Under the pieces are notes generated by a model, which did no database searches, was not told the origin of the DNA, and worked only from the letters and a program-made list of their open reading frames with translations. This document shows positions 23,621-53,398 of a stretch of DNA of 64,000 nucleotides, piece by piece. Both the position numbers and the translations under genes were made by a program. The DNA comes from Blasia pusilla (taxonomy: Eukaryota), in assembly GCA_050084515.1 (NCBI GenBank), contig CM114271.1, forward strand, positions 558,001 to 622,000, written 5' to 3'. The stretch's first letter is position 1. Each line of letters starts with the position of its first letter.

Positions 23621-26600
23621 CCCCGTACCTTTGCATGCATACCAACACATATGGTAGATGGGCATCCTAATAGACTTGCATTGCATTCTAGGTAATATTC
23701 TACTGAATGACATATCAAATCAACACGACCATGTCTATTGAGCACCATTTGTACCATCTCTATGCATCTAGACTTGAGGTTGTATACCTTTACTATGAGA
23801 TATGGTAATTTTAGGGCTCACTTGAGATGCTCGAGTGCTCAACGTTGGCTGATTCACCTTAATCTCAAGGGATATTGTTCCGTTATAAGAAATGGATTTG
23901 AGAATTGAATTTAGGGTCTAGTGGATAAGCATTCAAATATGCGCCCATGTTGAGGTAAAAGGTTGCATCAAGGGGTATATTGGAAGATTTCATTTGATTA
24001 AAATCTCATATGAGAGTGCATGTGTTCCAAGTAGTGCACGTATACACCAAAAAGAAGCACAAAAACAAACTATAATAATAAAGCCAAATATGGGAACCAT
24101 TTATTAAGTGGGACGTAGACAATGAAGGTCACATCAACCATGTGTTGTGATGTGGTTATTAGCCTTTTGTATGTGCATCCACATCCGCATTTGACATAAG
24201 TTGCATAGGAATAAGACTAACCTTTGAGAGGAATTACCAATGGCATGCACCTCCGTGGACCTACAAGATTGGTGTGCTACTTGGGCTCAAGCCCACTCAT
24301 AGGAATCTTGTAATTTTATGGCTTTTCTCTCTTGCTCTTGTTCAAGGATTCTTTGAGACTCTAGGAAAAACACGAGAGGCCTCCACTTCGTATCGGGTTT
24401 CCTCTTTAGTCACAACATTGTATGTGATAATTATGAACATTCTATGAAGGAAAAATCAAGGGAAGAGGAGAAATGATAAAATTTGTGAATATAGGGGGTA
24501 GTTGAGACTTAAATATAGGCCCCTATGGTTGGGTTTTTTCCACTTGCAAATATACTATCCCACCCGAAAATTGCTTTTAATCTACACGATCTTTGATTAG
24601 TGAGTTCTTGCACCCATAAATTTGTGAGTTACTTGTAGCTCTAGGATACACCAAAATTCCATGTTGAGAGCTCAAAAAATTGCAACATATTTGCAATGGT
24701 GCAATTTTGTAGCCCCCAATTCTAGAAAACCTATGCAGCTTTTAAGAGTTACAATGTTACCATTTGTGATTGTCTTGCAACTCATAAAACTCACAACATG
24801 CTTGCGCAATCATTGCAAATGTCACTCGCACTATAATCACACTATAATTGCATGGGAACCACAACGTACTAAAAAATAAACTCAAAAACCTGAAACAATT
24901 CACTCGGCCTCCCCTCCCCCAACGGTGTTTGAAACGATGAGTTGGCGGAGTTCTTGAATAATGCAGCCATATCTCCATAGTGCATGAAGAACATAATCTA
25001 TAGACACACTTCATATGGTTTTCACCACGTGAAGACAATGGTTTTGGGGTCATTAGAGGAGCAATGAACGTGGGGGTTGGGGATACCAACACCCACCAAC
25101 TGTGACCAAGGTTCATGGTGGTGAATCTTCAAAGGGAGTTAGCACTAGCTGCAAACCCTTACGGCTAATGGGCCAACACTATTTGTTAGCTAGAGTTGTG
25201 GCACTTGCCTCATAAGTCGAAGGGAATACACTCCTTCGATAAGGGAGGAGAGAAGGCATTTTGATATGCCTTTGTGAGTATCTCTTACCTTATTGCATGG
25301 TTGCACGGAAATAGACTTGTATGTTTACTAAACGGACATGCCCAACACGTTTCCCACTCGAGTTTTTTTGGTATCCTAGTCGCCCATGCGGGCTCGAGAT
25401 GTAGGAACATGTGCGAGCTTAGATTAAAGAAGGCATGCACGGATCAAACTGTAAGCTATGAGCCCTTGCCTGACCCACATGTAGACACGCCCGCACAAGG
25501 TGTGTCTACATTACAGGCCACGAGAACTCACGACTGTGTGGACATGTCTATCTTAAGAATAGACATAAGTCCATCCACACATACTTTTTTTGTGTGCAAC
25601 CTTGCCTTCTAGCATTCTTAGAATGTATAGATAATCAGATCATATTATAGAAGGTTTAATTGGTTGTGAGGATGGTGAATGGAGTTTACAAACTATGGGA
25701 AGTACCTTACCCCCTTAGTCAAAGGGGCATATCCACTTGCAATGATGAGGGTAAGCCAAAGAAAGGTGTAAGATACTTGAGTTGATTTTCAAGTCAAAAG
25801 AAATTAGTGAAAAATAGGGGAGTAGTCAAGAGGGATGAGATGCCTTGATACTAACCAAAAGAACTAATGGCTCCAATACAACCATGAGATGCCAAATGAT
25901 GGGAGTGAAGACATGCATTGGCCACGAGACACACAAATGGGAAAATTAGGGTTCCCTTAGAGAAACCTACAAGTATATAGAGGGAGGGACCCTCTTTCTC
26001 CATACCCGCTCAAGTCTTGGAACAAGGGATAAACCATGTTTTGCATTTGCTCATGTTTCAAGTTTGAGATGAGGAACCGTTCAAGACACACCAAGACGAA
26101 TCAACAACGACGCTCTAATTTAGGTGAGTGGTTAGAGGAGATTGGCCAAGACTTGGGGAAGAGGGTTCATAGGGAGACACTATGCGCCTCAAGAGACTCA
26201 AAATTCTTCAATGCTTGGAAACTAATCAATTCAACTATGAAATCCACAACTAGTTGGGTCTTTAAGACTCCCAAGACTTATGATGCTCACAAAACTCGAG
26301 ATCACAATGTCTCTGTGGACTGGCAAGGAAGTGTATAGCTTGAAATCTATGAAGATAATGCCTGGTGTAGTATGTGTGCCTTGTAGTTTACATCATATAG
26401 GAACCTTGAAAGGATACTATAGGAGACCCGATGAGCACAAATAGTGTTACAGATATTGCATAATAACAACCAAACCCTATCTCATCTAGTCCCATTTTAT
26501 TCACGAATGAGACTTGGGAGTCAAATATTGGGTCTAATTAAGTTGAGCATAGAAGAGCGATGCTGTGTATATCAACTCTTTAGGAGATAAGGAAGTTTCT

Positions 26601-26779
26601 TTGGATTCAACATGCATGATTTGGGTTGGTTGATTGATCGAGAGATTAATATAATTTGGCTTGTGACACAAGTATTTTTCAAGGACCTTATAAGTAGATT
26701 GATATGGATAGGCCCTTTGATTTAGGATAGGAGTTAAGATTTGGCTTAGCCAAGACTAATGGGGGACATTGCATGGAAA

Positions 26780-26900
26780 ACATGCATCTATTAGAGTCAT
26801 GCTCGTCAAGAAGGATATATATGCAAATTGGATAGATGCGCGTGGACTATCAACCTAATAATCAACAAATAAAGGTCATCGGTATGCTATACCTACCCTA
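26780..26900 (+). pseudogene. Short fossil RT fragment related to the DNMT-bearing element
   Basis: gtcatgctcgtcaagaaggatatatatgcaaattgg...cggtatgctatacctacc aligns with 37800-37912. Confidence 0.65.
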
Positions 26901-28130: not shown

Positions 28131-29579
28131 GAGTGAATTTCGAAGGTAACCTTTGGATTCCAACGCATGACTCATTTCTTGGATCTCAGTTAGGGACTCA
28201 TGTGAGGTCTGTTGGAAAGTTGGGATCGCCAGGCATGCGAACATAGTTTTAGGTGCCTAGACTATCCATAAACGTGGCCTTAAGTCTAGGAAGACTTGCC
28301 CCTGTTGGGAAGTAAGGAGTTAGGACCTATTGATCTTGATGAATGGCCAAAGTTGAGAACTCAGGGACTTAGGAAGGTTGGTTAACTCAAACCAAGACTA
28401 ATGAGAATGTGTTTGGGTACATATCAGCAAAGTGAGCGTGACTTATTGAACATACACTTCCCCAACATCTGAGACTGACGTTGAGGAGATGATATTGTGA
28501 CCCTTGATCCAAACTATTATTTAAAATTTTTAGGACTCGTTACAAGACTTTAGATTATGCATTTTTTTGCATATTGGAATTGGCTTCTTAGAAGCTTTCC
28601 AACGATAACTTATTCATCCCAAGCACATTTTGGCTATAACATTCATTACCGAAAATGTGGAGAATCCCCAAACACTGAATCAACTTCCAAGCTAGGTTGC
28701 AATTTATTTATAGGCTAAACTCTTGTGGGACTTTAATTCTCTTAAGTTCCATCTAGTGTTCGATTGTGCTCTTCTAAGTCATTATTTGCTTCGTTGAAGA
28801 TATCCATCGAGGCTCGTATCTTACTTTTATAATTCATGCATCGTTCATGACATTCTAACGAGTTCTCATCCTAGTATGATCCCATTAGATTTATGATATT
28901 TAACATTGATGCATGTTTGGTTATGAGGGTTAGGACACCTAAGGAGATCCTTTCATATTTTTGGGCATTTCAAGATATCTATTTCAATGGATCTGGGAAT
29001 TGGATACTATAATCTACCTATTAGATTGGAGGACATCTAAAATATGATATTTTGGGGCTTTGATCTTCAATGGAAAGATAGTTTGTACAAGCATACCATT
29101 TGGGTTGAAGAATAACTAGAATAAAGTTTGAAGGATCATAAATAATATTTTAATAAGTTTGAATTTTGGTAAGCATGATATTGATGATATCATAAGCTTC
29201 AATGTCATGGTTTAGGAATATTAACATCTCATGTAAATGTTTTTACAAATGAAGTTACATCTCGATGGGCAAGTTTTTCTTGCCATTAAATTTAATATTT
29301 TTAATTTCCATACATCTCATGGTTAAAGAGATCAATGAATGAGACTAGTTTGTCTCATCCATGCCCTGACCATATGAGCCCAATCTAGTTTCTACTACAC
29401 ATTCAATATGAAACTCTTTCTTCTTACACTTATTTTTTAACATTTTCTTCTTGCCAAGTCTTGTAGAGTGCAATTTCTCTTAAAGACTTTCAATGCACAT
29501 TTCCATACAAAAAATAATTTCCTACATATACTTTGTGTTCATTGTAGTATGTAGTTTGCATTGTGTACAATGGAACATG

Positions 29580-30068
29580 TGTAACGTCTTTTAGGAAAGA
29601 TCGGTGAGATCTAGTAGAGCGCCTTTGCAAGTAGTGGAGGGCACGCTTACGAGGTCGAGGATGACATGTTGAGGCCCCAGGAAACTTGAGAGAGCAGGTT
29701 TCCCCTTCGTTTTGGCTCTTTTGGAGCCATATTGAGAAACTTACTATATGGTCAAAGTTGGCTATATGGTCAACTTTATATTTTAGGAAGTGTCTCTTGA
29801 CCTCCTGCATGAGGTCAAGAGTGAAGGAGGTCACTTGAGAGCACATGTTACCATGAAGAGAGCTTGGGAGAGGGGAGCGGTATACCTTAAGGAGAGAGAT
29901 GTTGAGTTCTCTCTTTGTTGAACCTCTTGACACGAGGTAGCCGAGCTATGGTCCCTTGTCTTGTGAGTGTCATCCAAGCCTCTCATTAAGAGATTTGGTT
30001 TGGTTTGACATTGAGAGAGACATGTGAGAGTGCACACATGTGAGAGTTATGGTGTTGCGAGAAATATT
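29580..30068 (+). repeat. LTR-like repeat family A, 5' segment
   Basis: Starts tgtaacg; similar to 40870-41220, 52438-52990 and (reverse) 53232-53720. Confidence 0.75.
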
Positions 30069-31671
30069 TCACCTTATTTAAAAAGAAGAGAATGAGAGGG
30101 TGAGAGAGCTTGATGGGGCAACTCGTTGGTTGCTCAATGTTTGATGCAGGTTGGGGACCGTGTTCCCCGCTTCATGGCTCATGGGAGTACTTACGGAAGC
30201 AAGAGCCATGCTATTTTGACGTTTGTGTGTCAATTTTTTGTGTGAGAGAATAGCGCACGCAAGCGCTGCCCAATTTTTGATAGGGATTGAATATGGGGGT
30301 GGCTTGCCCCATTCCGGTGCTCTCAAGAGCACCATGTTGCTTGCTGATTTTTATTTTCATAGGTTTTACTTTTTTGTTGGGAGAAATCAACACGGAAGCG
30401 TTGCCAAAATTTATGTAGGAGAAGAGACATTGGGATTTACAACAGTCCATGTCAATTTTTATTGGAAGTTTCGATTCAAAATATGTTTTGGTGTAATTGT
30501 AGATCTTGAAGTTGTGCATGCTGTGCAATAAACAATGCGCAATTTGGAAATACGAGCAGAAAGTTATGGCCAATTTTGCAAAATTGTCATTGTTAGGCGA
30601 TTTTTAGGGTAAAATTGTTCAAACCCTAAACCAGCCGGCGCGTCGGCGACGGCTGTCACCTTCAATGGTCCGCCATCAACAATCAACAGTCCGCCGTCGA
30701 TGGTCCATTGTTACCATCAACGTTCCATCATTTTCATCCGCCGTCGACCTTCGACCGCCGCTGCCGCCTACCGCCGCTCAAAGCCGCGTTCGGCCATTGT
30801 TCGCTGTTGGTTGCCATTGCCACCATTATGGAGTGGACAGTCTTCCACGACGACCGTTGATTCTTTGAATCGTGCCGCCACCATATACTTTGTTGTGCTC
30901 ACCACTGTCATCATAGTTTTGTCATCAATGAGTGATGGTAGGTGACATGGAGTTAAGGTGTTTGAGTTTTAAGGCTATGTTGTGATTGGTAGCCACTCAA
31001 CAACGATCGAGTACCATGCCGTGATGCCCGTTGCCGCAATGCATTTCTGATTTCCGCGCCATACCCCTCGTGGCTGCACCGTACCGTTTCGATCGCGGAT
31101 CCGCTCCTTCACTAAGGAGTAGAGCGTGTGTATTGCTGATTGAGGAGGGTATGCCGCGGAGTTCCGCATCCCATTATCAAGTGTCGTGCCATTCTTTAGG
31201 TGTTTCGTGCCACCAGTGCCACACCGTATTGCTGCATGCGCATCGCATATTGAGGAGGTTTGAGCAGCATCAGTAGGAGAGGAGTATCATTTGCTGATTG
31301 GACGAGTTATCTTCACGACCGAGTTGGATCCAAGATTTTCAGTTGCCGAGGAGCGATATCGACATTTGTTTAAGTTACCCATTCTGTTCCGTTTACCCTG
31401 CATGTGCGAGGGAATTCCGAGTGTTGGGCAATTATTTGGGGATATTGGGTTTCGTGCAGATGTTGAGAGTATCATTGATGTATGGGTTTAGGGGATATAG
31501 ACCTGTGTGGGATGTCCAGACTTGAGGGTATGCCCTCTCGATGAGATGATTGGATGGTATCCGATTCTCGCACCACGCTGCCGCACATCACATGTTTCAG
31601 TGAGAGAGTGTAGATTGAGTGCCGCATGGTAGATTGAGTGATTGATTGATTACGCGTGAGATTGAGAGTGA

Positions 31672-34600
31672 TTGTGTGAGAGGGGCACGAGGGTCTTCAC
31701 GGCGTTCTTTCGAGATTTTGAGAGACGAGGTAGTGGACCTGAGAGTAGGTCTGGATGGTTTACCCACAGTGGTGCGAGGTTTCGAGGGTCTCCACATGAG
31801 AGACCACCTCAATCTCCTTCTGTGTCATCTTCAGACAAGGGGAAGCCTCTAGAGGAGTATGTTAGTGATCCGCCCTACACATTGAGTGGTCCTACAGTTG
31901 GGCGTACGAGATGGACAACCGGGGTAGAGGACCGTGTAGGTTTTTGGGTGCTGTAAGCACTATAGAGCTACACGACTTCATTGCGTAATTTAGGAGTTGG
32001 TGTGACTCACAGCGGGCTAGGAAATCTAGAGAGTCAAACCCGTTTATAGCATGGAACAGTATGTTCGAGCATTTAGAGGGGGCGCCCATGGACGATAACC
32101 ATGAGTTCTCCCACAGATATGCCCACGAGTTTGAGGCACGGCAACTCTACTATGACCCACACTATGTGTCATGGACAGAGCCATTACCAGACGAGGAGGA
32201 GGAGTCAAGAGAGGCTACTTCCTCTTCCACTAGTGATGTTTTAGGAGGGGTCACTTGAACTCGAGAAGTTGCACCGTCCAGTCGGGTGCGTCCTCGGTTC
32301 AACCCCATGGTTGAGTTTTTTGTTGAGATGCGGGCGAGCTACCGGGGGGTATGCACGGAGAAGTTGCGGAGCATCCACGACTTCCAGAGGCGTCCGGGTG
32401 AGAGTTTGCGTGAGGCTTACACTCGCTTGCATCGGTTGATCAACGTCACTCAAGGGGTGATAGAGGCTCAAGTGTCACATCTTATTTCGACTTAGGTAGA
32501 GTTCTATCGCGTCGACGGCATAGAGAGTCAATGGGCTATTCGGGTGTAACTTCATCCTGGGATGTCGGATGAGGTTGGCAACATGTTTTTTTTGTCATGA
32601 ACATTGTTTATGGAATTTTCCCTATTTTGGTTTTTGTCCGTCAGATGATTTGTTGACCAAGTCAACGGTCATCCGATAACTTATGCACGGAGGTTATCGT
32701 TTGGAGGGCTATTTTTGGGGGAAGAGCCTTTTGGCTCTTTCCAAGGGTATAAGAGGAAGAGAGATGGCTTTCTCAAGCCATCTTTCTCATGTTGAGCCTT
32801 AGGAGTGCCTCTCTTGCATAGACGTGTGTGGGTGTGTAGGAAGTTAGGGTGCTAGCGTTCGGATTCCCTCATAGCAAAGGCTGGATGTGGTTTGATATGC
32901 CAATGTAGATTCATGAGTGGAGTTTTAGGCCGGGTAAGCCGTTTTTACTACTCTTGATTTTACATGAGAAAGATTGGAGCCTCTATGTAGTAGGAGAGAT
33001 TTTGCCACTTGGTGTTTTCGAGCGTGGAGGGGATTCACGACCGAAGTTGGTCGACTTGCTAGTACTTTGGCGATAGGGGCTGAGATGAGTGTTCCATGCA
33101 AAGAGGTTGCGGTGGACTGCGAGAGGTGGAGACACACATGCTAATGCCAATGGGTAGTTCGCATCTGTTGACGGGAGGATTGACTTGTTGTGCAAGGAGA
33201 TGGTGGTGTTGCTGAAGTTGCTTTACCACATGGAGGAGTGAGTGTTGATGGTACGGTTGGTTGGAGGGCGTGATCAGGTTACCCATTCGAGTCCCTTTTC
33301 CCGCACTTGTCTCGTGTTATTGAGGGAGCTGGGTATCGGCTAGTAATTGGTGCAAGGTGGGTGTAGCGATGGTGGTGAGTGTATCATGTTTGTGGATATA
33401 TGGCGGTTGCTGAATAGGGGTCGCGTGTATGACCCGAGAGTATGTTTATGACTTAGGTGAGTTAGTCGGGAGGCTCCTTGTGAGCCTAAGTGTTGAGTGT
33501 GCGTGAGGCCGGGATTTTTCATCACGGGATTACCATTAGCGTAGGTGTGTGGGAGACTCTTGGTGAGTCTGAGAGCTTGAGCGAGTGAGACAGGGTTATC
33601 ATCACGGTGTTCTTCCAGGGTTCGGAAGAACGGGGTAGTACGAGAAGTGGTAGTGGAGTGACACAAAGTGGTGTGAGGTATCAAGGGTTTTGTGCGAGGA
33701 ACCACCCCGACTTCCATCCATGGCTGGATCGTCATCACTAGACAACGGGTCTAGTGACAAGATCGCCGACGGGGACGGTTATACGTGGAGAGAGATGGAT
33801 GACATGGGCCACGGCGGCATGTGTCGTTTCTCCAGTGCAAAAAGCACCATAGATTTAGATGATTTCATCAAAGAGTTCGACATGTGGTGTGACTTCCAGG
33901 AGATACTGACCCTTACGTGGTTCAACCCTTTTATGGCATGGAAGGGGTTGTTCCAGCTCTTACACGGTTCGCCAATGGATGATTAGATGGAGTTCCAATC
34001 TCTATACTTTGTAGAGATCGATGCCTAGAGGGTGTATTGGGCTCCAGGGTATGTGTCCACTAGTGACAACGAGGCGTATGATGGTATAGTGAGGTGTGAC
34101 GTATATGTGTGCTATCTGGAGTTGGGGGGACCCAACTCTCAGCTAGGGGGGCGGTTTTGGGGTCCCTATGTATATGCGTGACTATGTATATGTGTGAATC
34201 TACCCGTATGTTGGGGAAGATTGGTGTTGTGTGGTGTGTATATGTGACCAACAATGTGGGTTGTGTAGGGATGTGTATCCGCATGACACAGACTATCCAC
34301 TCGTGGTATGCAATGCTAGATCAAACCCTGAGGACACGGGTGCGGGAGCGGATGCTTCTTATGAACACCTCCCCTACGTTGAGCGATGTTTTTAGGATCG
34401 CCGAGAACATTAAACGCAATATGGCAGATGAGAGCGTAGCCACCATGGGTTCTAGGCGAGAGCAATCATGATTGCCTGCACGACCATTGTAGTGATATGG
34501 ATTCTAAGATTGGTCTGTGGCACCACGAGCTCAGGGAGAATACCGGGAGGTCGTGCCATAGAGACATGTGCCTTCATATACGGCTCAGCAACAGCCGTAT

Positions 34601-34800
34601 ATGATTATTTTTTGGGCATATGGTGGAGCCCATCACTAGCGCAATTGCACTCGTCAAGGTCATGGATGCGCGCCTCAGCCTGTAGGAGGAGATGGTGCTG
34701 CACCAGGAGGTTATCAGCGTGACTTTTGTCAGAGGTACGGTCATACTTGTGCCAAGTCTTCCAGTTTACACCCTAGGTTACGTCCGGACCAAGGGCTAGA
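31672..34800 (+). pseudogene. gag: gag of the DNMT-bearing element, interrupted by a nested insertion (32473-34288)
   Basis: ...FQRRPGESLREAYTRLHRLINVTQGVIEAQ | QTIHSWYAMLDQTLR rejoins in frame once the insert is removed; degenerate zinc knuckle RDFCQRYGHTCAKSSSLHP at ~34718-34775. Confidence 0.7.
32473..34288 (+). mobile_element. Nested, internally deleted family-B retroelement with a gag fragment
   Basis: tgtca...tgaca termini; flanks caag/caga; gag-like 33590-34060 (IDLDDFIKEFDMWCD...NPFMAWKGLFQLLHGSPMDD) is paralogous to 31950-32100. Confidence 0.7.
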
Positions 34801-35681
34801 GAGGGCACCAGAGCGAGTTTCCGGTCCGTGTGGGCTTATAGGTCGGGCGGTGGTCTCGTTGGGGGATGAGGAGCTGGAGTTTCCTGAGGGGTTGATGGAG
34901 TTGCCCGTGGAGGAGGTAGAGTTCCACCAGCTAGACGCGTCAAGGGAGACGCAAGGTGTGAGGCTAGGGTGGCTGCTAAGAAACAACAGCTACAGTAGTA
35001 GATGCCATTATGACACTCACGTTACCCGATGCCGGATCGGTGGCATCGACGTCTTATGGAGCATCCAAAGACATGGAGGATCTTGGTTGGATGTTCGTTG
35101 CCCACATGGAGGCCGCCGTAGTTGTTACGCGTGGAGCAGCCGTAGAGTTGGATCCACAACGAGGGGCAACAAGGAAACACACTAGGCTTCCTGAGTCTTT
35201 AACGTTATCCAAGGCGATGAGGACACCATCGATGGATCGTAATCCGACTTTCCGAAGAGTTGGTGATGTTGTTGGTGTGCAGGCACGGAGGGCGATGGGA
35301 GAAGCGAGTGTGACAACTGCTAGTGCTCATGATCATGAGGAGCAAGTGTCGAGCATGTTGTTGGGGACGGCCACTATTGTGTACTGGGCTCCTTTATTTT
35401 CTCCTTCCGATGTTAAGACGTTGGGAGGTACACCAGTCGAGGTTTTCCGGCTCGCCGCTAGGCTATGTGAGCGTAAAGTTGTAGTTCTTGCATCACGTTC
35501 AGAGGTGATTGCATAGGAGGTAATGGACCTGCCCTTGGAGTAGATGCTTGGGCCGTCCACGTCAAATTCATGGCAGGCTACGGCTGCTAGGATGGCGGGG
35601 ATGCTTGCTAGACCCGCAATAGAGCGTGCCATGGCTTCTCCTAGTGTTGTGTTGCTGGATAACCAGGGAGAGGTCTTCTAG

Positions 35682-36040
35682 TTGGTGAGTCCAGGAGATA
35701 GAGCTTTTAGTCTGCAACGCATCTTGTTGGATTTAGGAGCACAACCCCTAATGTTGGGGAAAGCGACATTAAGAGATTTGGGCGTGACGAGGGCCGATGT
35801 GGAGCGTTGTCCATTCAGGATACATACATCCTTGGATGGAGCGAATACCACACAATATATCACCCGACAGAGGTTGTGGTGAGGTTTTGCCCGCAACATC
35901 CTACAAATGAGTCAGTGGTGCGAGCCAAGGCGATAGTGACCAATGTAGAGTCCTACGACGTCTTGGTTGGTGGAGAAGTGTTGTACCCGATGGGATTCTC
36001 CTTCGATTATGGGGAGGAGTCAGAATCCTACATACCAAGA
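35682..36040 (+). pseudogene. Retroviral-type aspartic protease domain
   Basis: RILLDLGAQPLMLG (degenerate D-[ST]-G-A) and downstream YDVLVGGEVL motif. Confidence 0.7.
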
Positions 36041-36278
36041 TGGTAGACCTTTCTGTGGAGAGGAGTATCATGGTAGCCGCATCATTCCGTGGAGGAAAGG
36101 TGTCGCTTTGGGGCTCGACTAAGGAGCTTCGACGCTTAGCCGCTGAGCATGTGCAGACCGCGTGGAGCAAGATGTTTGCGCTAGGGCATGATGTGTCAGA
36201 GGAACCCAAGGTAGCCAAGAGTGCTACTATGACCCCTTTGGACATCACCCGATTCTGTGGTGCATTCCAAAGGAGGGT

Positions 36279-37190
36279 ATGCGCGTGCTAAATTTATTTG
36301 GCGGGATTAACACTGGTTTAGATGCTGTTTTGCAGGCTAGAGGCAAAACAAAGATTGATGATGTTGTGAGGCGCGCTTCACTTCACCATGTGGCGCAATT
36401 ATGCCTCCGGTTTTCCGACTTGTTGTCTACGTCCGTTGTCCAGGGATACCAGAGTTCCCTACCGAGGGATATTTCATTGCTGAGGGCACAAGACTTGGAG
36501 CGGGTAGGGACCATAGACTTGGTCATTGCTCGTTGGCCGTGTTAGGGCCAATCAAGTGTTGGAGGAGATAGGGGTTAACAAACTCTCAGTCCATGTTTTT
36601 TTGGGAGATGATGCGGATCTTGCGACATTTACACGAGCATCAGTCTCGTTCTCCAACATACATTCTGGAGAATGTGCCATTTTTGGTGATTCGAGGTCCC
36701 GCGTGGTGACGAATGCACATAAGGTGCGTACATGGATCGGTCCGTCAGAGTTGTTGGATGCGGCGAGTGTAGGTTCACAAGCACATCGCCCGCGGCTTTG
36801 GTGGACCAACTTGGTGCCATATGAGGTTTTGCGGAGGGCGTATGTGAGAGTGGAGCGTCCCTCCCATTTGTTGGTGGATTCTATTCTGGATCCATGTCGT
36901 CAATCATAGGCAGTGACTGTGGTCAACAAGATTGACATGCCGCAAGCAGACTTTCCCACATTGGTGAGTTTTCTTGCTTCCTATGCATTCAAGGAGGCCG
37001 GACCAGGCTTGGTTTGGGATGACCAAGTATAGCGGTTGGTGGAGCCCAACGTCGATGAGCTAGAGCAAGCGATGGGATTCCCCAAAGGAGTGACGGTTGT
37101 ACCGTCACTATCAGAGGCATCACGACATCCTATCTTGGGTCAAGCGATGGACCTAAATTGCTTGAAATGGATTTTCAGCTTAGGAGAAGC
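36279..37190 (+). pseudogene. DNMT3-like C5 cytosine methyltransferase domain within pol
   Basis: Motif I VLNLFGGINTG; IV IDLVIARWPC*G; V FFWEMMRIL; VI YILENVP (36668-36676); VIII LDAASVGSQAHRPRLWWTNL; IX ELEQAMGFP; X RHPILGQAM. The motifs are in canonical order across frameshifts. Confidence 0.88.
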
Positions 37191-37689
37191 TAAGCAGCGT
37201 CGTTTGCGGATGCGACAGATCATTGTTGTTGCGTTGGTGAAACCCATGCCTGTCGAGACGATTGAGGTAGTGGCTGGGGGTGAGACCCGAGGAGATTGAC
37301 ATACAAAGGATGATCGGGAGAGACACCCTTGGATTTCTTGGGATGTTTTACAGGTACGCCATAAGATTGTAGCCACAACATTGAGCGTGGTGCCAAAAAC
37401 TGCACATGGAAATTCAATTTTGCAGTTGGCTGTAGGGGACCAGTCGAGTTATGTTGTCCGAGACAGGGTTGCACCATAGCAACCACCTACACTAGCGCCA
37501 AAGAGTCCTATCGTAGTCACGATGGAGACTTGGGAGGCACATATGGGCCCAAAGTTGACAGGAGGAGAGCGGCGCCGGATACATCAGTTCCCAAGGAGTT
37601 ATAGGAGCTATTTTGCATTTAGTATGCATGTTTTGAGTACATTGAAGGATCCAAGGATCCGCATGGAGTTGTCGAGTGACAGGCTGATC

Positions 37690-38940
37690 TTCCAATGACC
37701 CTAGAGTGATATGGAGAGGGCTCTGATTCAGAGTAGGAGCCAGGACTTGGTTGGAGCAGGACTATTGGAGATGTCGCATGGAGAGTATGTATCTGCCACT
37801 GTCATGCCCGCCAAGAAGGATGTGCATGGCAACTGGACGGACATGCGGATGTGTGGAGATTACCGACCTATCAATCGGCAGACAAAGTCCGATAGGTATG
37901 CCATGCCCACTCCTGGGGAGATCTTTGATACTATTGGGCATGCAAAGGTCTTCAGTTCTTTAGATCTTCAAGCCGGATACCATCAGTTGCATATCACATT
38001 GGAGTTTTGGGGCATCGATACTCACGGGAAGGATTGCTTGTACCAGTTGCGGTTCTTACCATTTGGGTTAAAGAACACTCCAATTGAGTTTCAGAGGGTC
38101 ATGGATAGGATCTTGGCAGGTCTGGATTTTGCTAGGTGTTATATTGATGACATCGTAGTCTTTAGCGCCAAGGTTTAGGAGCATGAGCGACATCTAGAGG
38201 AGGTGTTTCGACGATTGCAGTAACATTGGCTGAAGCTACATCCAAGCAAGTGCAAGTTCTTCTACGACCAGATTGAGTACTTAAGTCATACGATATACCC
38301 AGGGGGCCTTGGTGTGCAGCAGACAAAGATAGAGGCTATTTCAAGCATTCCACGCCCTACAGATGTGAGTTGAGTTCGTGTACTCATGGGATTGGCAAAC
38401 TTCTATCGACGGTACGTCAAAGGTTTCAGTTCGATTGAGAAGCCGCTAACCTTGCTGAGCAAGGTGGATCAGGAGTGGCACTGGGGGGATCAGGAGGAGA
38501 GAGCATTTTAGTTGCTCAAGGATAGATTGACGTCCGCGCCCATATTGAGGAGATCGATCAGGGGGCGTCTTTTCCAATTGCATACTGATTGGAGCATGTT
38601 GGGGCTTAGAGCCGTGCTCACCTAGCATGGCAATGATGGTAGAGAGTTTATGGTGGCTTACGCTAGTCGCTTAAACAACACTGCAGAGGCGAAGTATAGC
38701 TTGTGTGAGGGTGAATGCTTGGCTGCAGTGTGGGTTGTTGCACATTTCAGATGTTATCTATTCGGAAATCCCTTTACCATCATTATTGATCATCTGCCAC
38801 TTAAGTGGTTGATGAAGTCCGACAAGCTTACAGGGAAGCTTGCGAGGTGGGCTCTTATGTTGCACGAGTACGACTTCCAAGTGATACATAGACCTGGGAC
38901 GCGCAACTAAGATGCAGATGGTTTGAGTCGTAACCCATAC
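37690..38940 (+). pseudogene. pol: Reverse transcriptase and RNase H
   Basis: RMCGDYRPIN, LDLQAGYHQ, LPFGLKN, YIDD (38140-38151); HTDWS, EGECLAAVW, IIDH, LARWAL; many stops. Confidence 0.92.
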
Positions 38941-39299
38941 TCGAGTCAGCGAGATGCAATTGGAGCTCGATGGCATGGAGAGAGTGATGAGGAGTTGGTG
39001 CCAAGATGACACGCGTCAGCCTATTTGGGCTTCTTGGCTATGGAGAGCCAGATTGCTGGGACCTCGATGGCGAGGTTTGATGGAGAGTCCTTAGATCCAG
39101 AGGCCGGTGAGGGGGCAAAGATATTCACGGCGATGGAGTAGTCTTGGAGTACCTGCGTACTGGCAGCGTCGCGAGCAAAGTGGGTGCCAGAGACCGGGAT
39201 CAGATCCTACAGCGAGCTAGACGGTTCCCGAGGGAGGGGACACATGTGTTGCGAGTGTGGGAGGATGGCAGAGTGCATGCAGTGCCTCATCCTTCGTAG

Positions 39300-40380
39300 A
39301 GAGCACGTTTTTTGCGTCATGCCCACGAGGAGTTGTGTCATTTTGGAGTGAAGCAGACGTACAACTTGCTCAAGATTCAGTATTGATGGTGAGGTATGCA
39401 AACTGATGTTCAGTAGTTTGTTGCCAAGTGCATGGTGTGTGATCGAGTCCGGGCATGGTTCAATGCTCCGATTCCATAGTTGCATCCACTTCCAATCATG
39501 GGTTTAGGTTAAAGATGGAGTTTGGATTTTGCAGGACCTTTACCTTTGACGAAGCGCCATAGTCGTTATGTGTTGGTGATGCTTTAGCACTTCTCCAAGT
39601 GGATAGGGTTGGTTGCATTGTCTGACAAAACGAGTGAGGGAGTAGCGTATGCCTTCCTAGATCGGATGCTGAGTCATTACGGCGCACCCGGTGAGGTGTT
39701 GATAGACCAGGGTACAGAGTTCCGTGCGGAGTTTCAGGCCTTGTGTGATCAGGCACTGATAGACCACCGCACTACTTCGCGAGATCATCCTGAGGCGGAT
39801 GGACTAGCAAAGCAGGTTGTGCAAACGGTGAAGAGGATTACGCAAGTATGGCTTGTAGAGAGGTCACCTAGGAGATTGGGACCTTCAGTTGCCCTGATTG
39901 GCGATGAGATACAGATTCAGCATAAAGGTATCCTTAGCGTCTTACTCAATGTACTTGCTTTTGTATGGCCAAGAGCCAGATTTACCCGCGCCGATTCGTC
40001 GAGATGTTGGTGAGGTGTTGAACCTTGATGACCCTGATGTATGGAAACGAGCATGTTCTTATAGGGCTGAATTGTTTCGGAGAGTGATGCCCATGACGTT
40101 TGAGAACTTGGCGATTGCGTTGTATCGGGATACATTGAGGTAGCGACTATTCAGGGAAGTGGTTATCAACCTACTATCCGGAGGTTTCATCAGGGAAATT
40201 ATGTTTATTTGCAGCAGACAACACCCATGACGTTGGATGTGACTGCAGGGCGCACCATCTTGAGAGTGCGTGAGGTTTTGCCATTAGGTGTTCTCTTATT
40301 GGAGGGACGCGATGGTATGGTTTGGAAGGATCATGTGCGTAACTGTGCGCCGTGTCACCTTCCAAACATTGACGGTACAG
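39300..40380 (+). pseudogene. Integrase
   Basis: HHCC (HEELCH...CMVC), LDFAGP, DQGTEF, HPEADGLAKQ. Confidence 0.88.
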
Positions 40381-40418
40381 TTGATCCAAGCTTAGCAGTA
40401 GTTTATGTAAGCTTGCGA

Positions 40419-40559
40419 TGTATGTTGTGTGGTTCTGCCCGTGGTGCAACCACGATGCTAGTCTGTGATGGATGTTCGAGAGGATGACATATGGCATGTT
40501 TGACGCCATCTCTCACTAGGGTTCCTCAGTAATGATGGATGTGTCCGAGATGTACATAG
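40419..40559 (+). pseudogene. PHD finger at the integrase C-terminus
   Basis: CMLCGSARGATTMLVCDGCSRG*HMACLTPSLTRVPQ**WMCPRC, a complete C4HC3 pattern in one frame. Confidence 0.85.
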
Positions 40560-40869
40560 CGTAGGTAGTTATACTTTCCGACTTGTGTCTGTGGCATGGA
40601 TGACAAGAAGGCGACTAACGACGAGGCCGCATGAGCACCCGACCTTCTTGCTCTTAGCGTCCGGGAGATGTATGTCATGGTAGATAGGGATAGATGGTTA
40701 TCTGGAGTTAGAGGGACATAACCACCAACTAGAAGGGCAATTGGAGATATTTTGGTACTTCTTGTTTTGTTTCTTGGATGCCATGAATTAGCATGAGATT
40801 GTGCGTGTTTGTGTGTGTGTTCGATGACAACGATGCATGTTACATAGCGATATATATGCACACAATAAT

Positions 40870-41228
40870 TATCACATCTTTTAGAATAGATCATTGTGAT
40901 CTAGTAGAGTACAATCACGAGTAGTAGAGGACAGACTCAGGAAGTCGAAGATGATACGTTTCGGCACATTTGAATTCATATTGAAAAGCTTACTATTTTA
41001 GATAATTATCGTTTTGAGTATTTGGTATACTTTCTATTTTAGGAAGTGGCCCTTGACCCGGTGTAGGAGGTCAAGGAGTTGACTTGCAAACACATGTTAC
41101 CATGGAGAGAACTTGGACGAGGGGAAGGATATACTTCAATGAGAAAAAGTTGAGAACTCATGATCTCTTTGTTGAATCTTTTCACACGAGACGGCGGAAT
41201 TATGATCCCTTGTCTTATCAATATAACA
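40870..41228 (+). repeat. Diverged family-A 5'-segment copy
   Basis: tatcacatcttttag...gatctagtagag...cacatgttaccatg...tcccttgtctt matches 29580-29962 with many differences. Confidence 0.7.
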
Positions 41229-43422
41229 AAGTTTTCTATATCCACTTTATTATAAAATAAACCTCATAAGACGACAAAAAAATGTAATAACAACTCAAGA
41301 GAGTAAAAAAATGTATACAAGAATGCAAAAAGAAAATCAAACAAGCCAACGCAAACATCGGCTCAACGAACTACACGATTGATAGTCTGAAACAAATATG
41401 ACAAAAACACGACTGGTTGGTCAGACGTGAATGGACGACAAGGCGAGCCACCCCTCCTCGGTGCACACTCAAGTGCGTGCCGAGCCTTTAGGGTCGAAAC
41501 TTGTCCTTGTACAAGCAAATCTAAAACTCTTCAACCGGACAACATGTCCTCTGATTAATTTTATGGCAATCGCAAACAAAGCCCATTTACATAAGAGAAG
41601 CTCGATCTTTCATTTCTAATCCAGAGTTCCAATACATAACCCCAGGCCAAGAAATGGTGTATCAGCACTCGGGACTTTAACAAGCCCGTAATAGCTAAGC
41701 ATACCCCACATAAAGTACTATGCCGAGTTATTGCATCCATGCAGTCCACACAAATAATAGCCCGACACACATCACCCTTTAGAGGATAACCGAGATTCTA
41801 TGAATCACAACTTCCCTTTCGAGAAAATAACACTTCAAGCAGAATAGAGTATGCAATCAGTCTCATGAGTAGACTTTCAGATTTGAGGAAATACACTCAA
41901 TTTCTCATTCATGCAAAGAGTACATCTACCTTGTATCAAGAGTAAGCCCCACCAACACTCCCGAGTGACTCAAAAGCCAGAGGAGTGGCATACTCAAACA
42001 AGGGCCTCAAGACATGATATTAAGTAATGTCAAGATACCTACCATAACTCTTCAAACTACCTGTATCCCTTCACTATACCAGTCTTCAAAGTAAGCCTTC
42101 CCTGGTATTTTACACCCACAGCAAGAGATCAATTTCCCCAGGCCATCATCATAGTAATTACCACTGTGAGTTGATCAAGAGGCTTTGCCCGGAATTCCTA
42201 GAGGCAACCAGACACAAGTCCGCATAGGAAACAAGGAAATCAGAACATATGGCAGTAAATCCTGCATGCAGCCCGCAAGAAAAGCATGTCAAAATCACAA
42301 GCCATGGAACCATTCAATATAATCCAAATATCGGTGGACCCACTATACAATATTCAAAATGTCAACCTTGGGTGAGAGTTCTCACCTAAACTATTGGCTC
42401 GCCATATGATTGAAACCCGCTGTACTTCCAGTGGTGCTCTTGCGTGCAGCATTGTCTCTTACTAAAATGCTCACAGGGAAGTATCCCTGAAATGCAGTCA
42501 AACACCTCACTCCTCCATGAGTACAGGGATGGCCAGTGGCTGAAGCTCAGATGGCAAAACGGCTGACGCTCTGATTCTCAAATTGCTATAAGGCTCTAAC
42601 CAGCCCTGCAAAATAGCATGAGTGATGTGTCATTCAACTGGTTAAAAAACTAGCTGTCGACAAGCTAGGAATCTGTTGAACCAAGACATCACAAAATGCT
42701 GAAAGCAGTCCTGTCAACAGTAAATGACCACCATATCTACTTCCACCTCATCTGCTTACTGAGAGGTCCAAACCATAAGTCGTCACAGTAATCAAGTCAA
42801 TTCCTAACGGACATGTCAACGAGCACTGATATAACTGAGCCAAGATTCACTCACCCAACTCATTGGGAGCAGATGCAACTTGTGCCCATACTGGGCTTGC
42901 TTCGACTAATACCCTAGATCTTAACAGATCTTGGGTCATCTCATCCACTTAACCACCATGCACTCCCTGAACTTGCAGCCCTAACTGCTACTTTGCGATA
43001 GTGATCTGCATCTTCTCTATTTTAAAAAAAAACCTCACTGATCAGGCTGAGCGAACTCTTGTGCCACTTGAGGAAAAAACTTGACTGGGTTAAGAGCTCA
43101 CTTTCTGTTAGCAGGGGTCTGGGAGAAAAACCCTGTAAGAACCCCATGCCAGATAGAAAGAGTAGAGGCTACAGCGAAGTAACCTCTTTGCCAAATCTCT
43201 CATGAACCCCGAAGTGTTCCTCTTTAAGTGGGCCTACACACTGTAAATTCGATTCATGCTGCCTATGCCTCTCTCAGTATTTGCCTGCAAAACTCCCTGC
43301 CATCACAAAAATTTATAACTTCTGTATGCGCCAGTATGTGCACTGTCTTTGTCGTAAGATACCCTGATTCTCCAATTGACTTCATGCACATTGTGCTGGC
43401 AGGGGCAGGCCGGGCCGCGTCC

Positions 43423-46098
43423 TCAACGGCGCCGGGCATGGTTGAAACTTGTATCAGGCTGCTGTGGATGAGGCTGACCATCAATTCCACAAGTCAGTTT
43501 GGTCAGTCACTCATTGAAGTGCATTTTCAGGTCATCCAAATAGCTCCTAAAAGTCCACACAACAAATAATGAAATGGAAAGATTTAGCAAGTAGGATTCA
43601 CACCTGAGAAATAGACTGTTGGAAACGTTCGTGAGGGTGCATGTATGCCAAAGAGTGGCCAGGGTAAGCATATTGCGGACCATGCATATACATTGCCACT
43701 GCAGAATGAGGGCCAATTTGACCTTGAGTGAAGGGCCCCATCAAAGGATCTGGAGGCCTGAAACTCATATTCCCTGGGACAGGAGTGCCCCATGGAGGTC
43801 GCATACGCTGCTGAGGGATCGGGGGAGGTGGTGGTGGCTCCATGTGAATTTGGGGCCTCGGACCTGCTAACTGTGGGAATTCCGTGTTGTAATTTACCAC
43901 AGGGGTATATATTGCTTGCATACCAAACGGACCCAAGCTCATACCAAAACCTGGATCAAACCGCTGAGAGTACCTGCAACAAAGTTAGTGGCAAACATGT
44001 CAGCAACTAAGTAATAATAGCAGTAGAGTAGGAGCACTTCCAATCCCACAACCGAATGCAGGGCTGCAAGCGCAAGATTGGATCAGAGTTGATCAGCTCT
44101 GTACACACAAGGCCAATCACAACACCTACGAGGCTTCATCTGGTGAAAATGACCATATTGAATTAACTCTACACCATTATGAGACTGAATGTTGGCCAAT
44201 ATACTTCAGACTTGTACCTCCATCGATAAATGAGTCACTGGGACCCTGACACAAGGACTTTGCATCACGGATAGCTTACCTATCATAGCTCCGATCGTAG
44301 TCCGGATCTTTGCGATCCTTCTCACGGTCTCGGAAGATGGCGACCCGACTGTTATTGCCATTCAATAACTTGTTCCTACTAAAACTTTCCTTGTCGAAAT
44401 TGGCACTATTCCTCGCCTCACTCAGAGAGTAATCGCCCAGCACTCTAACAGGACTGTCTCTTCCCTGTGATCCCTCGGCCTTATACTTCTCATCAGGTTT
44501 AAGGACCTCCTCTACGGTGGAACAGTCTGTCAGTCTCAGATCATCCAGAGCCGCTGGTTCAATTTCACAACCCTTACTGGCTAGCTCATTGCTAAAAATT
44601 CTGGCCCTCGCCTTGTTGTATTCCTCCTTCCTTTCTTCCACACTCTTAGAAGGGTTGAGTCTGTTACCATAGCCAGAGCCACTTCCATCACCATTGGCTC
44701 GACCCCCTTTGGACGGTCTCTGCTTGATGGCGACTTTAGGCATTGAAACGAGGACTGGTTTCTCTTCCTCGGGGGCATCAACTGGAATGTCTGCTAAACG
44801 AATTGTGGGGTATCGACTCTCCGCATTCTTGCGGGCCACAATTCTACTTCCCTCTGTAGATCCGCTGTCGACCACCAGAGATTGCAGAAAATAATGCTGG
44901 GCGACCCGATGAGCCGCAAGCCTCAGGTATGAAGACGGCATAGGTTGAAATTCCAGTTGCTGTTGCTTTGAATTGCGCATGAACCTCTCAACCTCCTGCT
45001 CCAGACGTAAAACTGACAGAAGAACAAAATTTGATCGAAAATAAGTATGGGAACTTCACTCTTCCCGCTACAAACAAATCGAATAACTCCAACATACCAC
45101 ACGGCACCTTGCATGGGGTGCTCAGTCCTGACGAAACCAGGATCACCCCTACTCGGTAACATCACCGGCGTCACTGAAGCATGCACAGGGAAGTTCTACA
45201 ATAAAAGGTAACGAAAGGTGTACGCTACTCCAGCCTCTGAAATCCACACTGACCGCTAAAGAATTCGTGTCCTAGACACGGGAGGTACTCAGGAAACAGA
45301 AGGTGTAGGTTGACCGGAGCACACATCACGAAATCGTGGTCTAATCCCGACTCAAGCAGATGATGCCTTCAAAACTTCCGCAGATGCAAGAAAAGGAGTG
45401 ACCGATGAGACAAGTAAACGCAGACACTTCCACAAGACGAGTACGATAGCCCAAACCGACTTCATACTCTAAGACTCAGCAATTGGGCACCCTTTACTAA
45501 TCATGTACCAAGAGACACAAGGGCAAAACCAGTATTCCTGAGGAAACTGTTACCGAAGAAATACAATATCATCGACCAGAGTTCAGGGTACGTTACATTC
45601 TCTGTGGGTCAGGCACGATTTACTAAAAGACGGTCTGTCTAACCAGCAACGCGGGGCTCGGGAAATAGGAACAAAATATAGTCATAGACAAACTTTGGCC
45701 CTATCTCCAATCCCCAAAGACCTCTTTAAGAGTATACATAAAAGCAGCCGCAACAAGACGCAACCTTACGCAGAGATCGGGAACAGTCCCGCAAACTTAC
45801 TCGTGAGGCGGTCCCGCGGGTTCTGCAAAGCTTCTCGCAGGAAGCCATCGACCTGATCAACGGTTTTGGCAGCTCCAGAAGCGTTCTCGGAGGATACTCC
45901 CAACTCTCCCTCCAAGTTCTCGAGAGTGTCGCACCCATCAACGTTAGAATCAGCAGAAAATTTCGAAGAGGCCATCAAGGTCTTCATGCTTTCCTCCAAA
46001 TCAGCCATCTCCCACGACTCGGGGGGTCCCTCTTCCTCGACCCCACCATTCTTCGAGCCCCCCAAAGCCTCCATGCCTTCTGGAAGCCTCAAACCCAT
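43423..46098 (-). CDS. R3H/SUZ-domain single-stranded nucleic-acid-binding protein (~483 aa). Exons 46098-45801, 45012-44280, 43973-43604, 43473-43423
   Basis: PESWEMADL, VDGFLREALQNPRDRLTILRLE, SYLRLAAHRVAQHY (R3H), KSVEERKEEYNKARARIF (SUZ), RVAIFRDREKDRKDPDYDRSY; GT-AG introns in phase; the start codon could instead be the downstream ATG (MEALGG). Confidence 0.9.
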
Positions 46099-49000: not shown

Positions 49001-50109
49001 ATATTTTAAAGATTAAAATTCATAGTATTTAACCCAGTAAAAATTAATTTTTGAATAAAATTAAACCATCTCTATTCTAAAGATAGAATACATTTAATTT
49101 CTTAAAGCTTCAAACATCAAAATTTTGAGATGTGCTTTGTATATGTTGGTTCATCTTCCCTCTAAAGTACTATTGGAGAACATGCTTTGGTTCTATCAAG
49201 CACCCTACATAATAACACATGTCATTTCAGGTAGCCTTATGAGTAACGATTTCAAGCATATTTGAAAAATGAATTGTTTGCCATCACGAATGAAGCTTGC
49301 TCTTAAAGAAAGGGGAAGGAGTCATAAATGAGAATTCGTTATACTAGCAAGGTGGTTATATGATGTGGAGGTAATTATTTTTGTTTTCAATGGTTGACAT
49401 AGTGACAACACTGCTAGGGATTGAGGTGTTGACATGACTTCATTGTGAGTCCACTTTATGCAACTTCGATTTGCAAGTCTAGACAATTGTTTTTGCGTCG
49501 CAAATGTGTTAACTTAAACTGAACTTGCCATGGACCCATAAATATGATATTAATCATATTTTTTTAATATTTAATATTATTGATGAGTTTATATAAACAT
49601 TGAGCTCCGCTATCCTATTTTCGACTGTTGTTCTATCCAACTTTTCCCATGGCCTCTTCAAATTGCCTCGGCACACCCTCGAGACTGTGCACTCTCGGTC
49701 CGCACTTCCTTGGCCCCTGCTACGCACTCCCGTGTACTTGCATTTCACCCTCCTTGCGGCTCCTTCGATTGTGAGCGCCTCAACCTGGAAAGTATCCGTT
49801 TTCTTCCGAGCTATGCCTTCCGGCTCCCCACTTCCGGCTACCCTCCTGTTTTTCTTGATAGCCACCCTCAGGGCGGCTACAAAAACCTGAACTCGTTCTC
49901 GCCATGCATAAAACCGCTCGTGCCACACTCAAGCATTCTCTCCTATCAATAAGCACCAACAAACTCTTCAAAAAATGGACTGCGCTTTTGCGCACGGTCT
50001 TCCAAACTAAAACTAACACACAAAATCCCAACTACCATTTCCAGGAGCTCCCAACCGAGGCAACTCGCTTGCCTACCTACAAAAAACAAATTCCCCTTGC
50101 CCCCTCACA

Positions 50110-50562
50110 TCTTTCTCATGTAAAAATAAGAGAAAAAATGGCACACTCGGCCTAAAACTCCACTCTTGAATCTACATTGGCATATCGAGCCTGGTCCACC
50201 CTTTGCTGTGAGAGAATCCGAACACTAGCACCCTAGTTCCTAGCTCACACACGAGCAAGAGAGGTGCTCCAACGGCCCAACATGAGAAAGATGGCTTGGG
50301 AAAGCCATCTCTCTCCCTAAAAATAACAATCCTCCTGGTAACCTACGCGCACAGGTTACCAAGGGCGGGTGACCTGCTCAACAAGTCACCCGGCTATGAA
50401 AGACCCAAATACGAAAGTCATTGGAAACGACGTTCCTAACACAACGGACCTATCCTCAACCCCATCCAACATCTCATGATGAAGTTACACTCAAGACAGT
50501 TTGCTGGTTCTCTATATTGTAGCCACGAAACATCTCTACTTATCGGCTACTAAGATGTGACA
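50110..50562 (-). repeat. Family-B 5'-segment copy
   Basis: Reverse complement begins tgtcacatctta; shares agagatggctt...aagccatct and gttttaggccg with 32473-32970. Confidence 0.75.
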
Positions 50563-52990: not shown

Positions 52991-53231
52991 GTTAGAACAA
53001 AAAATAGACGGAAATAAATAAGGTCAGTAAACCTTCAAGTAACCTCGATTGTATTACTCAATCGAATAGTTTTAGTAGCATATACCATTGATGTGTTTTC
53101 TATGCAATAGGCAAATTTTGTTGACTTAGAGCCGCTACGAAGAGTCGTATAATTTAAGGGGTAATTATAGAGTCTATATTGAAGATGTGGTAAAGTGTAA
53201 TTAGTATGGCCTAATTCATGCGCATACACAT

Positions 53232-53360: not shown

Positions 53361-53398
<38 letters not shown>

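Follow-up and report, generated by a model that had tools for sequence, protein, structure and literature searches.

Transposons are usually methylated by their host, and retrotransposons that carry a cytosine methyltransferase of their own invert this picture. Here we describe what is very probably an old, dead Ty3/gypsy long terminal repeat (LTR) retrotransposon with a DNMT3-like domain inside its pol region, located in a 64,000-nucleotide stretch of the liverwort Blasia pusilla (GenBank assembly GCA_050084515.1, contig CM114271.1, positions 558,001 to 622,000 of the forward strand; hereafter the window, in whose own numbering all coordinates are given). Its kind is already known from KnitGypsy-Dnmt3 of Klebsormidium nitens, as set out in the main text of de Mendoza et al. 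2018 (PMC5890265), where the Klebsormidium elements are placed in a divergent DNMT3-related clade. The same K. nitens system is named ‘Gypsy-DNMT3 of streptophytes’ in bioRxiv 10.64898/2026.05.21.726589, and in the passages concerned both this preprint and PMC12344493 cite only KnitGypsy-Dnmt3 for streptophytes. Outside the green lineage, the DNMT3-type domains of dinoflagellate DIRS retrotransposons are described as methylating CG de novo in yeast (PMC5890265, main text). An initial annotation of the window, made from the sequence alone, had likewise stated that retrotransposon-borne DNMTs were reported from dinoflagellates and a charophyte alga, which is correct as far as the main text of PMC5890265 goes. 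The gypsy case has so far amounted to one alga, few copies and an inconclusive activity test; the locus described here extends it to a land plant with a very abundant, transcribed family. We found no published report of DNMT-bearing LTR elements in land plants, nor of a PHD finger on any DNMT-bearing LTR element, in a search that left subscription journals and supplements largely outside.

The window encodes a complete, non-permuted C5 cytosine methyltransferase domain at 36267-37380 on the plus strand, from motif I through motif X. A family hidden Markov model (HMM), A1, built from an alignment of 40 relatives with the window sequence excluded, was compared with the six-frame translation of the entire 64-kb window, in which stops were written as X. 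It matched just three pieces, colinear in both profile and DNA, and gave no match elsewhere in that translation, an outcome well outside what chance would produce. Piece 1 (36267-36581, plus strand, frame 3; profile positions 34-148, 82.8 bits, E 8e-27) carries motif I (LFGGINTG), a gap at motif II and the WPC of motif IV followed by TAG, while piece 2 (36566-36685, plus strand, frame 2; profile positions 144-184, 24.1 bits, E 5e-9) carries FFWEMMRIL and motif VI (ILENVP). Piece 3, by far the longest (36682-37380, plus strand, frame 1; profile positions 184-427, 224.7 bits, E 7.7e-70), holds motif VIII (AHRPRLWWTNL), the target-recognition region, motif IX (ELEQAMGF), motif X (LGQAMD) and a linker. 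The resulting order, I, IV, VI, VIII, IX and X, is canonical. Two frameshifts, near 36566-36581 and near 36682-36685, separate the pieces, and three in-frame TAG stops interrupt them (36543, 36907 and 37030). The first of these stops lies inside motif IV, directly after Pro-Cys, where six of six aligned relatives have Gln, and motif II is lost from this copy, leaving a six-residue gap relative to the family profile. A clean C-to-T signature was considered for the stops, as the TAGs within the DNMT mostly correspond to Gln in relatives, but stops across the whole pol face many different residues and we therefore make no claim of a deamination signature.

This domain is part of a continuous, decayed pol, lying between diverged LTR-like repeats, in which the order is protease, DNMT, reverse transcriptase (RT) with RNase H, integrase and PHD finger, and which has acquired over 30 in-frame stops and no fewer than seven frame changes. 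Upstream of the DNMT, a decayed aspartic protease region (35349-36043, plus strand, two frames, at least three stops) is recognizable by homology to relatives: it aligns with residues 4-217 of the protein P0374 at 49-61% identity (tblastn, E 1.7e-46), and P0372, P0376, P0013 and P0286 match as well. At 35730-35738 the window reads D-L-G where P0374 has D-T-G. Pfam gave no match for the window's protease piece, and P0374 itself reaches Asp_protease_2 at E 0.0012, under the cut-off. Downstream, RT and RNase H occupy 37570-38937 (plus strand) in one frame with eight in-frame stops, and their read-through translation matches RVT_1 (E 5e-24), RT_RNaseH (E 1.4e-29) and RT_RNaseH_2 (E 1.4e-25) in Pfam. 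The integrase follows at 39111-40158 (plus strand, two frames, at least nine stops), with its H2C2 zinc finger, DDE core and C-terminal part identified by Pfam and tblastn (Integrase_H2C2 at E 4e-14 and rve at E 3e-12, both within 39111-39836). The C-terminal end of pol is a PHD finger (40419-40553, plus strand, three stops; PF00628 at E 1.1e-10 and 41.8 bits, the cut-off being 24), which is colinear with the corresponding PHD finger in the relatives P0035 and P0296.

Two further observations tie the DNMT to this pol. A tblastn alignment with P0294 extends over 801 residues in a single frame (36649-38991), from DNMT motifs VI and VIII through RT and RNase H, and the DNMT and RT were therefore formerly one reading frame. 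In addition, the window is colinear both with P0374 and P0372 (49-61% identity), in which protease and DNMT share one open frame, and with P0044, P0294 and P0296, which run from DNMT through RT and RNase H to integrase. By its pol order and its RT_RNaseH and Integrase_H2C2 domains, with the protease taken from homology, the element is on sequence criteria a Ty3/gypsy element. Several statements of the initial annotation can thus be settled together. The motif strings it had quoted are indeed found at 36279-37190 on the plus strand, in the canonical order it had given, although they lie in three frames rather than one; the domain does lie between protease and RT, with both flanks where it had placed them and with intact protease-DNMT proteins and polyproteins that match this arrangement; and the copy is dead, with stops and frameshifts across the whole pol.

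The element is flanked by a 5′ LTR-like repeat at 29580-30010 (plus strand; starting TGTAAC and ending TTTGACA) and a 3′ LTR-like repeat at 40870-41276 (plus strand; ending GACGACA), which are direct repeats of one another with 72-74% identity in BLAST pieces. Both end in CA, and the 5′ copy begins with TG. A repeat scan under strict settings gave no LTRs, looser settings revealed the direct repeats, and their ends were placed from a four-copy alignment; the pairing of the two is probable. A DIRS-like A-coding-B-A-B layout was also sought, and among the decay and the neighbouring fragments only plain direct repeats were present. Between the 5′ repeat and the protease, a weak gag-like segment (31941-32459, plus strand) aligns in tblastn with residues 70-270 of P0362 (E 8e-7) and residues 2-109 of P0375 (E 7e-7), with no Pfam match to this segment. 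A second, partial gag-like segment (33882-34052, plus strand) aligns with residues 1-56 of P0375 (tblastn, E 7e-8). Positions 32037-32096 in the first are similar to 33924-33983 in the second, and the gag region is ~2 kb longer in the window copy than in relatives.

Sequence profiles and predicted fold both place the domain nearest to the animal de novo methyltransferases. When the window's two DNMT fragments were compared with the PDB, all matches (19 of 19 and 5 of 5) were to DNMT3A, DNMT3B or DNMT3C, albeit weak (E 0.2-1.6). The intact relative P0013 retrieved 29 DNMT3 chains at E 5.5e-10 to 4e-8 before the first DRM at 2e-4. With the A1 profile, DNMT3A scored E 2e-24 (89.6 bits) and DNMT3C and DNMT3B ~1e-22, followed by NtDRM (E 6e-14, 55 bits), AtDRM2 (5e-11), M.HhaI (2e-9, 40 bits) and DNMT2 (5e-5, 25 bits); at E ≤ 0.01 this search returned no DNMT1, MET1 or CMT chain. 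Against DNMT3A the profile is colinear over the whole span of motifs I to X, but on DRM chains its N-terminal half falls on the C-terminal part; the domain of the element is therefore not permuted. Fold comparisons were made on a model of the relative P0373 (398 aa, 54% identical to the window piece) rather than on the broken window copy. The AlphaFold model has a predicted local distance difference test score of 84.6, exceeding 90 over residues 1-320. Among the Foldseek matches listed for it, all are DNMT3A, DNMT3B or DNMT3C (best E 5.7e-19, template modelling score ~0.8 on the target). VIA-align against 48,161 representative chains ranked DNMT3B first (Z 27.7, root-mean-square deviation 2.6, 268 residues aligned) and DNMT3A at 26.3, with M.MpeI (24.4), M.HhaI (22.2), DNMT2 (~21), DNMT1 (19.9), DNMT5 (18.0) and ZMET2 (17.8) at lower ranks. 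By sequence profile and predicted fold, then, the family is closest to DNMT3A/B/C: the PDB matches, the profile ranking and the modelled fold agree with the DNMT3-like assignment first proposed for this locus, and the offset against DRM agrees with the non-permuted order proposed alongside it.

We next consider whether the domain is likely to be an active DNA methyltransferase. Across 142 family domains, the catalytic Cys is kept in 141, motif VI has its Glu in all 142 and its Asn in 139, and the first and second arginines of motif VIII are present in 142 and 141, respectively; judged from these alignments, such conservation is the pattern expected from selection for catalysis. Directly before the catalytic Cys, where Pro is near-universal in such enzymes, 90 of the 142 domains have Glu (W-E-C-Q), mostly those with the other domain order described below, and 45, the window's clade included, have Pro-Cys. 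At the third position of motif VI, 67 domains have Thr, 56 have Val and 15 have Ala. The conserved residues and the Glu before the Cys bear on an alternative in which the domain is integral to the element and yet is not a de novo DNA methyltransferase, serving instead to methylate RNA, such as the element's own transcript, or acting as a non-catalytic module that binds DNA or chromatin. The Glu that replaces the usual Pro in so many relatives would fit such a role, as would two points in the main text of PMC5890265, namely that KnitGypsy-Dnmt3 yielded no DNA methylation in yeast and that the authors raised RNA methylation for a DNMT borne by a LINE. However, that yeast test was inconclusive, since human DNMT3B failed there too (PMC5890265, main text), catalysis is favoured by the residues noted above (the catalytic Cys, Glu-Asn of motif VI and both arginines of motif VIII), each of them retained in 139 or more of the 142 relatives, and the nearest proteins by sequence and fold are the DNA enzymes DNMT3A/B, not DNMT2. 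We consider this alternative unlikely.

The domain has a large family. A phmmer search of 1.84 billion representative proteins with DNMT piece 3 (P0002) gave 605 matches at E ≤ 0.001, 278 of them at E ≤ 1e-10, and the best were proteins of Calypogeia fissa (57% identity) and Marchantia polymorpha (54%). PF00145, the Pfam DNA methylase family, was found inside gypsy polyproteins in four of five long matches and three of ten further matches. With the P0044 DNMT as query, a word-indexed search recovered 81 polyproteins of 1203-3829 residues; Closterium strains and the chlorophyte Monoraphidium neglectum are among the named hosts, and environmental contigs supply most of the remainder. Five longer proteins were found with the window piece, including P0372 (Calypogeia fissa, 714 aa, from a cluster of 11 sequences) and P0374 (726 aa), each with protease and complete DNMT in one open frame and each colinear with window positions 35349-37434. 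Full protease-DNMT-RT-RNase H-integrase polyproteins are present in Closterium and in environmental contigs.

Two pol arrangements occur among these relatives. In 103 proteins that contain both DNMT and RT, a count that includes a few near-identical cluster mates, the DNMT precedes the RT in 19, as in the window, and lies between RNase H and integrase in 84; PHD fingers are present in both groups. A DNMT tree of 90 rows was built from all 12 non-redundant DNMT-before-RT proteins, 30 of 77 RT-before-DNMT proteins (28 random plus named ones), 45 without RT, two partial liverwort rows and the window, with five cluster duplicates excluded. In this tree the two domain orders split on one branch (Shimodaira-Hasegawa-like approximate likelihood ratio test, SH-aLRT, 100), and the window groups with Calypogeia and Marchantia (SH-aLRT 99) within the DNMT-before-RT side, where Closterium is found too. 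An RT tree of 38 rows has the same single split (SH-aLRT 100), with the window RT among the DNMT-before-RT proteins and nearest to P0294 (58% identity). The two trees agree, and the DNMT has therefore long travelled with the RT. A rooted view of which domain order is older depended on a single long, partly deleted outgroup and was not relied on.

Raw reads bearing the same species label were mapped on 35000-45200 at 80% likeness, the whole-genome run being sampled at about 1 in 100. Of 12,434,590 whole-genome records, 120,797 fell on this segment, nearly all of them on the element. The protease bins reached a summed depth of ~2100, the three DNMT bins ~1750-1880 and the stretch between RT and PHD 2500-3400, whereas the host flank (41479-45200) had ~0.3; depth dropped from hundreds to zero between 41138 and 41479. 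The family thus makes up roughly 1% of whole-genome reads, with the DNMT segment present at almost the abundance of the protease. Most of these reads (100,824 of 120,797) are <90% alike to the window copy, which is therefore an old, diverged member. At 36571, the place of the first DNMT frameshift, 344 of 771 whole-genome reads carry a one-letter indel relative to the window copy, as do 218 of 1933 at the place of the second. In three stranded RNA runs, ~95% of element reads came from the sense strand, the call being made by comparison with a host gene on the minus strand, which was read with first mates on plus, the element being read with first mates on minus. RNA depth was 36-58 over the DNMT in all three runs and reached 100-230 between RT and PHD. 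As most RNA reads are <90% alike to the window copy, their source is other copies of the family. Within the 3′ LTR-like repeat, at 41040-41096, numerous reads of both DNA and RNA link the two strands, which suggests a short palindrome or hairpin in the LTR of the family.

These data bear directly on the possibility of a one-off capture, in which a single gypsy copy took up a processed host DNMT3 transcript or gene fragment while its family remained without DNMT. In favour of a capture, the domain has no introns and is atypical of LTR elements in land plants, and the linker bin just before it (36023-36363) is lower in read depth than its neighbours. Against this stand the 605 representative proteins that match the DNMT piece, the intact frames of other species with protease-DNMT or protease-DNMT-RT-RNase H-integrase in the same order, the concordant DNMT and RT trees, a read depth of ~1750-1880× over the DNMT bins versus ~0.3× in the host flank, and the continuous frame across the DNMT-RT junction. 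The same relatives, intact frames, trees and read depth bear out the initial annotation in treating the locus as one member of a DNMT-carrying lineage, and we regard capture as very improbable. Less credible still, to the point of being almost negligible, is that the segment belongs to, or is the relic of, a host gene domesticated from such an element, as the listing of related sequences as ordinary proteins in Calypogeia and Marchantia annotations might invite one to think. The pol around the segment is colinear, flanked by LTR-like repeats and broken by over 30 stops and no fewer than seven frame changes, and the reads indicate a very high-copy family.

Taken together, we conclude with a probability of roughly 85% that 29580-41276 is an old, dead copy of a Ty3/gypsy LTR retrotransposon whose family carries a DNMT3-like domain as an integral part of Pol, between protease and RT, and a PHD finger after the integrase. 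This family falls within a broad set of DNMT-bearing gypsy elements of the green lineage, of which KnitGypsy-Dnmt3 was the first to be described. Several points weigh against this conclusion. PF00145, which the initial annotation had proposed as the check on the domain, matched none of the window's three frame pieces and neither of two read-through pieces (0 families in each case). We attribute this absence to the short, broken frame pieces rather than to absence of the domain, and the closest relatives, P0372-P0376, all pass PF00145 (five of five, 32-46 bits; cut-off 22). The domain in the window is assigned to the C5 methyltransferases because a profile that includes these passing relatives matches it at E 7.7e-70 and 8e-27, so that membership runs through an intermediate family profile. 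Likewise, the label ‘DNMT3-like’ reflects a ranking of scores and a predicted fold, not a tree with reference families. No target-site duplication is visible at the LTR-like repeats, and with a repeat pair at only ~72-74% and family fragments nearby, the outer limits of the copy are uncertain. The copy number is rough, because most reads are <90% alike and 77,215 whole-genome reads lie only partly on the window copy, and the depth over RT and integrase may include related families. Finally, no K. nitens protein is among the named family matches, most matches being nameless, and the domain of KnitGypsy-Dnmt3 produced no methylation in yeast, a result that its authors call inconclusive (PMC5890265, main text).

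What the domain might do can be outlined for live copies; the window copy is incapable of any such step because every one of its pol domains is broken. The DNMT would be translated within Gag-Pol, would be cut out by the protease or stay with RT, and would be carried in the particle or pre-integration complex together with RT and integrase. It could then add de novo methylation, most likely at CG, to newly made cDNA or to a recent insertion; the initial annotation had likewise suggested release by the protease and methylation of cDNA or insertion site. The chromatin state of the incoming copy would be fixed in this way, whether to restrain the element itself or to disguise it with gene-body-like methylation. 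The PHD finger, for its part, might read the histone H3 tail and tether the integrase to a histone mark, steering integration as chromodomains do for chromoviruses. De novo methylation of cDNA or insertion appears the likeliest role because the DNMT3 domains of dinoflagellate DIRS, which are the closest characterized analogues, carry out de novo CG methylation in yeast. As a whole, we see this mechanism as possible rather than probable. Somewhat more doubtful is a wider evolutionary proposal, in which these elements would form an ancient green-lineage clade spanning chlorophytes, Closterium and liverworts, the DNMT would have moved within pol a single time (between protease-DNMT-RT and RT-RNase H-DNMT-integrase, in either direction), and a living, high-copy, transcribed liverwort lineage would retain a catalytically competent DNMT and a PHD reader.

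If such a living, competent lineage does make up ~1% of the DNA, transposon-encoded de novo methylation would measurably add to the host methylome. With this family one can ask directly whether a DNMT3 carried by a transposon methylates new copies of that transposon or the genome of the host, and in an accessible setting: the close relative Marchantia is genetically tractable, and the Calypogeia relatives offer annotated, intact reading frames. The PHD finger after the integrase suggests a second chromatin module, a reader, in the same element. A practical consequence is that fragments of transposon pol may account for some of the ‘extra DNMT3-like genes’ listed in annotations of bryophytes.

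The surroundings of the element contain further transposon debris and a host gene. An R3H/SUZ gene exon at 44279-45055 (minus strand) identifies the host as a liverwort, with identities of 81% to Marchantia polymorpha, 79% and 78% to two species of Riccia, 75% to Calypogeia fissa and 54-56% to mosses and lycophytes. The gene to which it belongs, at about 41900-45200 (minus strand), is expressed and spliced in all three RNA runs, with five joints that read CT..AC on the plus strand and hence GT..AG on the minus strand, and the dead element ends ~600 bases from it. At 11334-14550 (plus strand) lies a second Ty3/gypsy element, which lacks a DNMT and has long open gag and protease-RT frames; most of its RT palm and thumb is gone, with no counterpart to residues ~1484-1668 of its relatives. 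Pieces of the same or a related family as the DNMT-bearing element occur at 52438-52900 (plus), ~53219-53767 (minus), 22775-23210 (minus) and 50104-50562 (minus), and include two LTR-like copies in mutually opposite orientation and two copies of the element segment 32473-32979 (65-82% identity). Just upstream of the 5′ LTR-like repeat, a degenerate RT fragment (26456-26896 and 28935-29260, plus strand), 64-65% identical to element positions 37469-38226, is interrupted by ~2 kb bounded by the inverted repeats 27494-27546/28894-28946 and 27782-27864/28573-28655; this insert looks like a small terminal-inverted-repeat transposon within an older copy. In base composition, the coding (plus) strand of 30000-40000 has more G than C (skew +0.16 to +0.26) and more T than A, the element at 11334-14550 is rich in G and A, and the CpG observed/expected ratio is 0.72 in pol and 0.46 in the host gene region.

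How, then, does this family compare with the systems already described? Among enzymes, the catalytic domains of animal DNMT3A, DNMT3B and DNMT3C (2qrv, 6u8p, 8tci) give the best profile and fold match and share with it the motif order I-X and a short target-recognition region; identity, however, is ~20-24%, no PWWP or ADD domain is present here, and the domain sits inside a retrotransposon polyprotein. Plant DRM (NtDRM 4onj, AtDRM2 7l4c) is the second-best class by profile score, but is circularly permuted, whereas the domain of the element has the canonical order. Among mobile elements, chromoviruses, too, are gypsy elements whose integrase carries a small chromatin-reading domain at its C-terminus, which is a chromodomain there and, by prediction, a PHD finger here. 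SymbioDIRS-Dnmt3 of dinoflagellates also has a DNMT3-type domain in a retrotransposon Pol, with two domain positions among related elements, although those belong to the DIRS type, which has a tyrosine recombinase and no relation to gypsy, and CG de novo activity is demonstrated for them in the main text of PMC5890265. The closest likeness is to KnitGypsy-Dnmt3, which, as far as its published description in the main text goes, shares with the window family an intron-less, non-permuted DNMT3-related domain in a gypsy Pol frame, a streptophyte host and conserved catalytic residues; direct kinship between the two is putative. The two differ in that the host is a land plant, a liverwort, here and an alga there, in that the family accounts for ~1% of whole-genome reads here and has few copies in K. 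nitens, in that the repeats appear plain, direct and LTR-like here and are split in a DIRS-like manner there (both K. nitens features as given in PMC5890265, main text), and in that a PHD finger follows the integrase here, whereas the word PHD is absent from the main text of PMC5890265. The family in the window is thus a land-plant addition to the known KnitGypsy-Dnmt3 kind.

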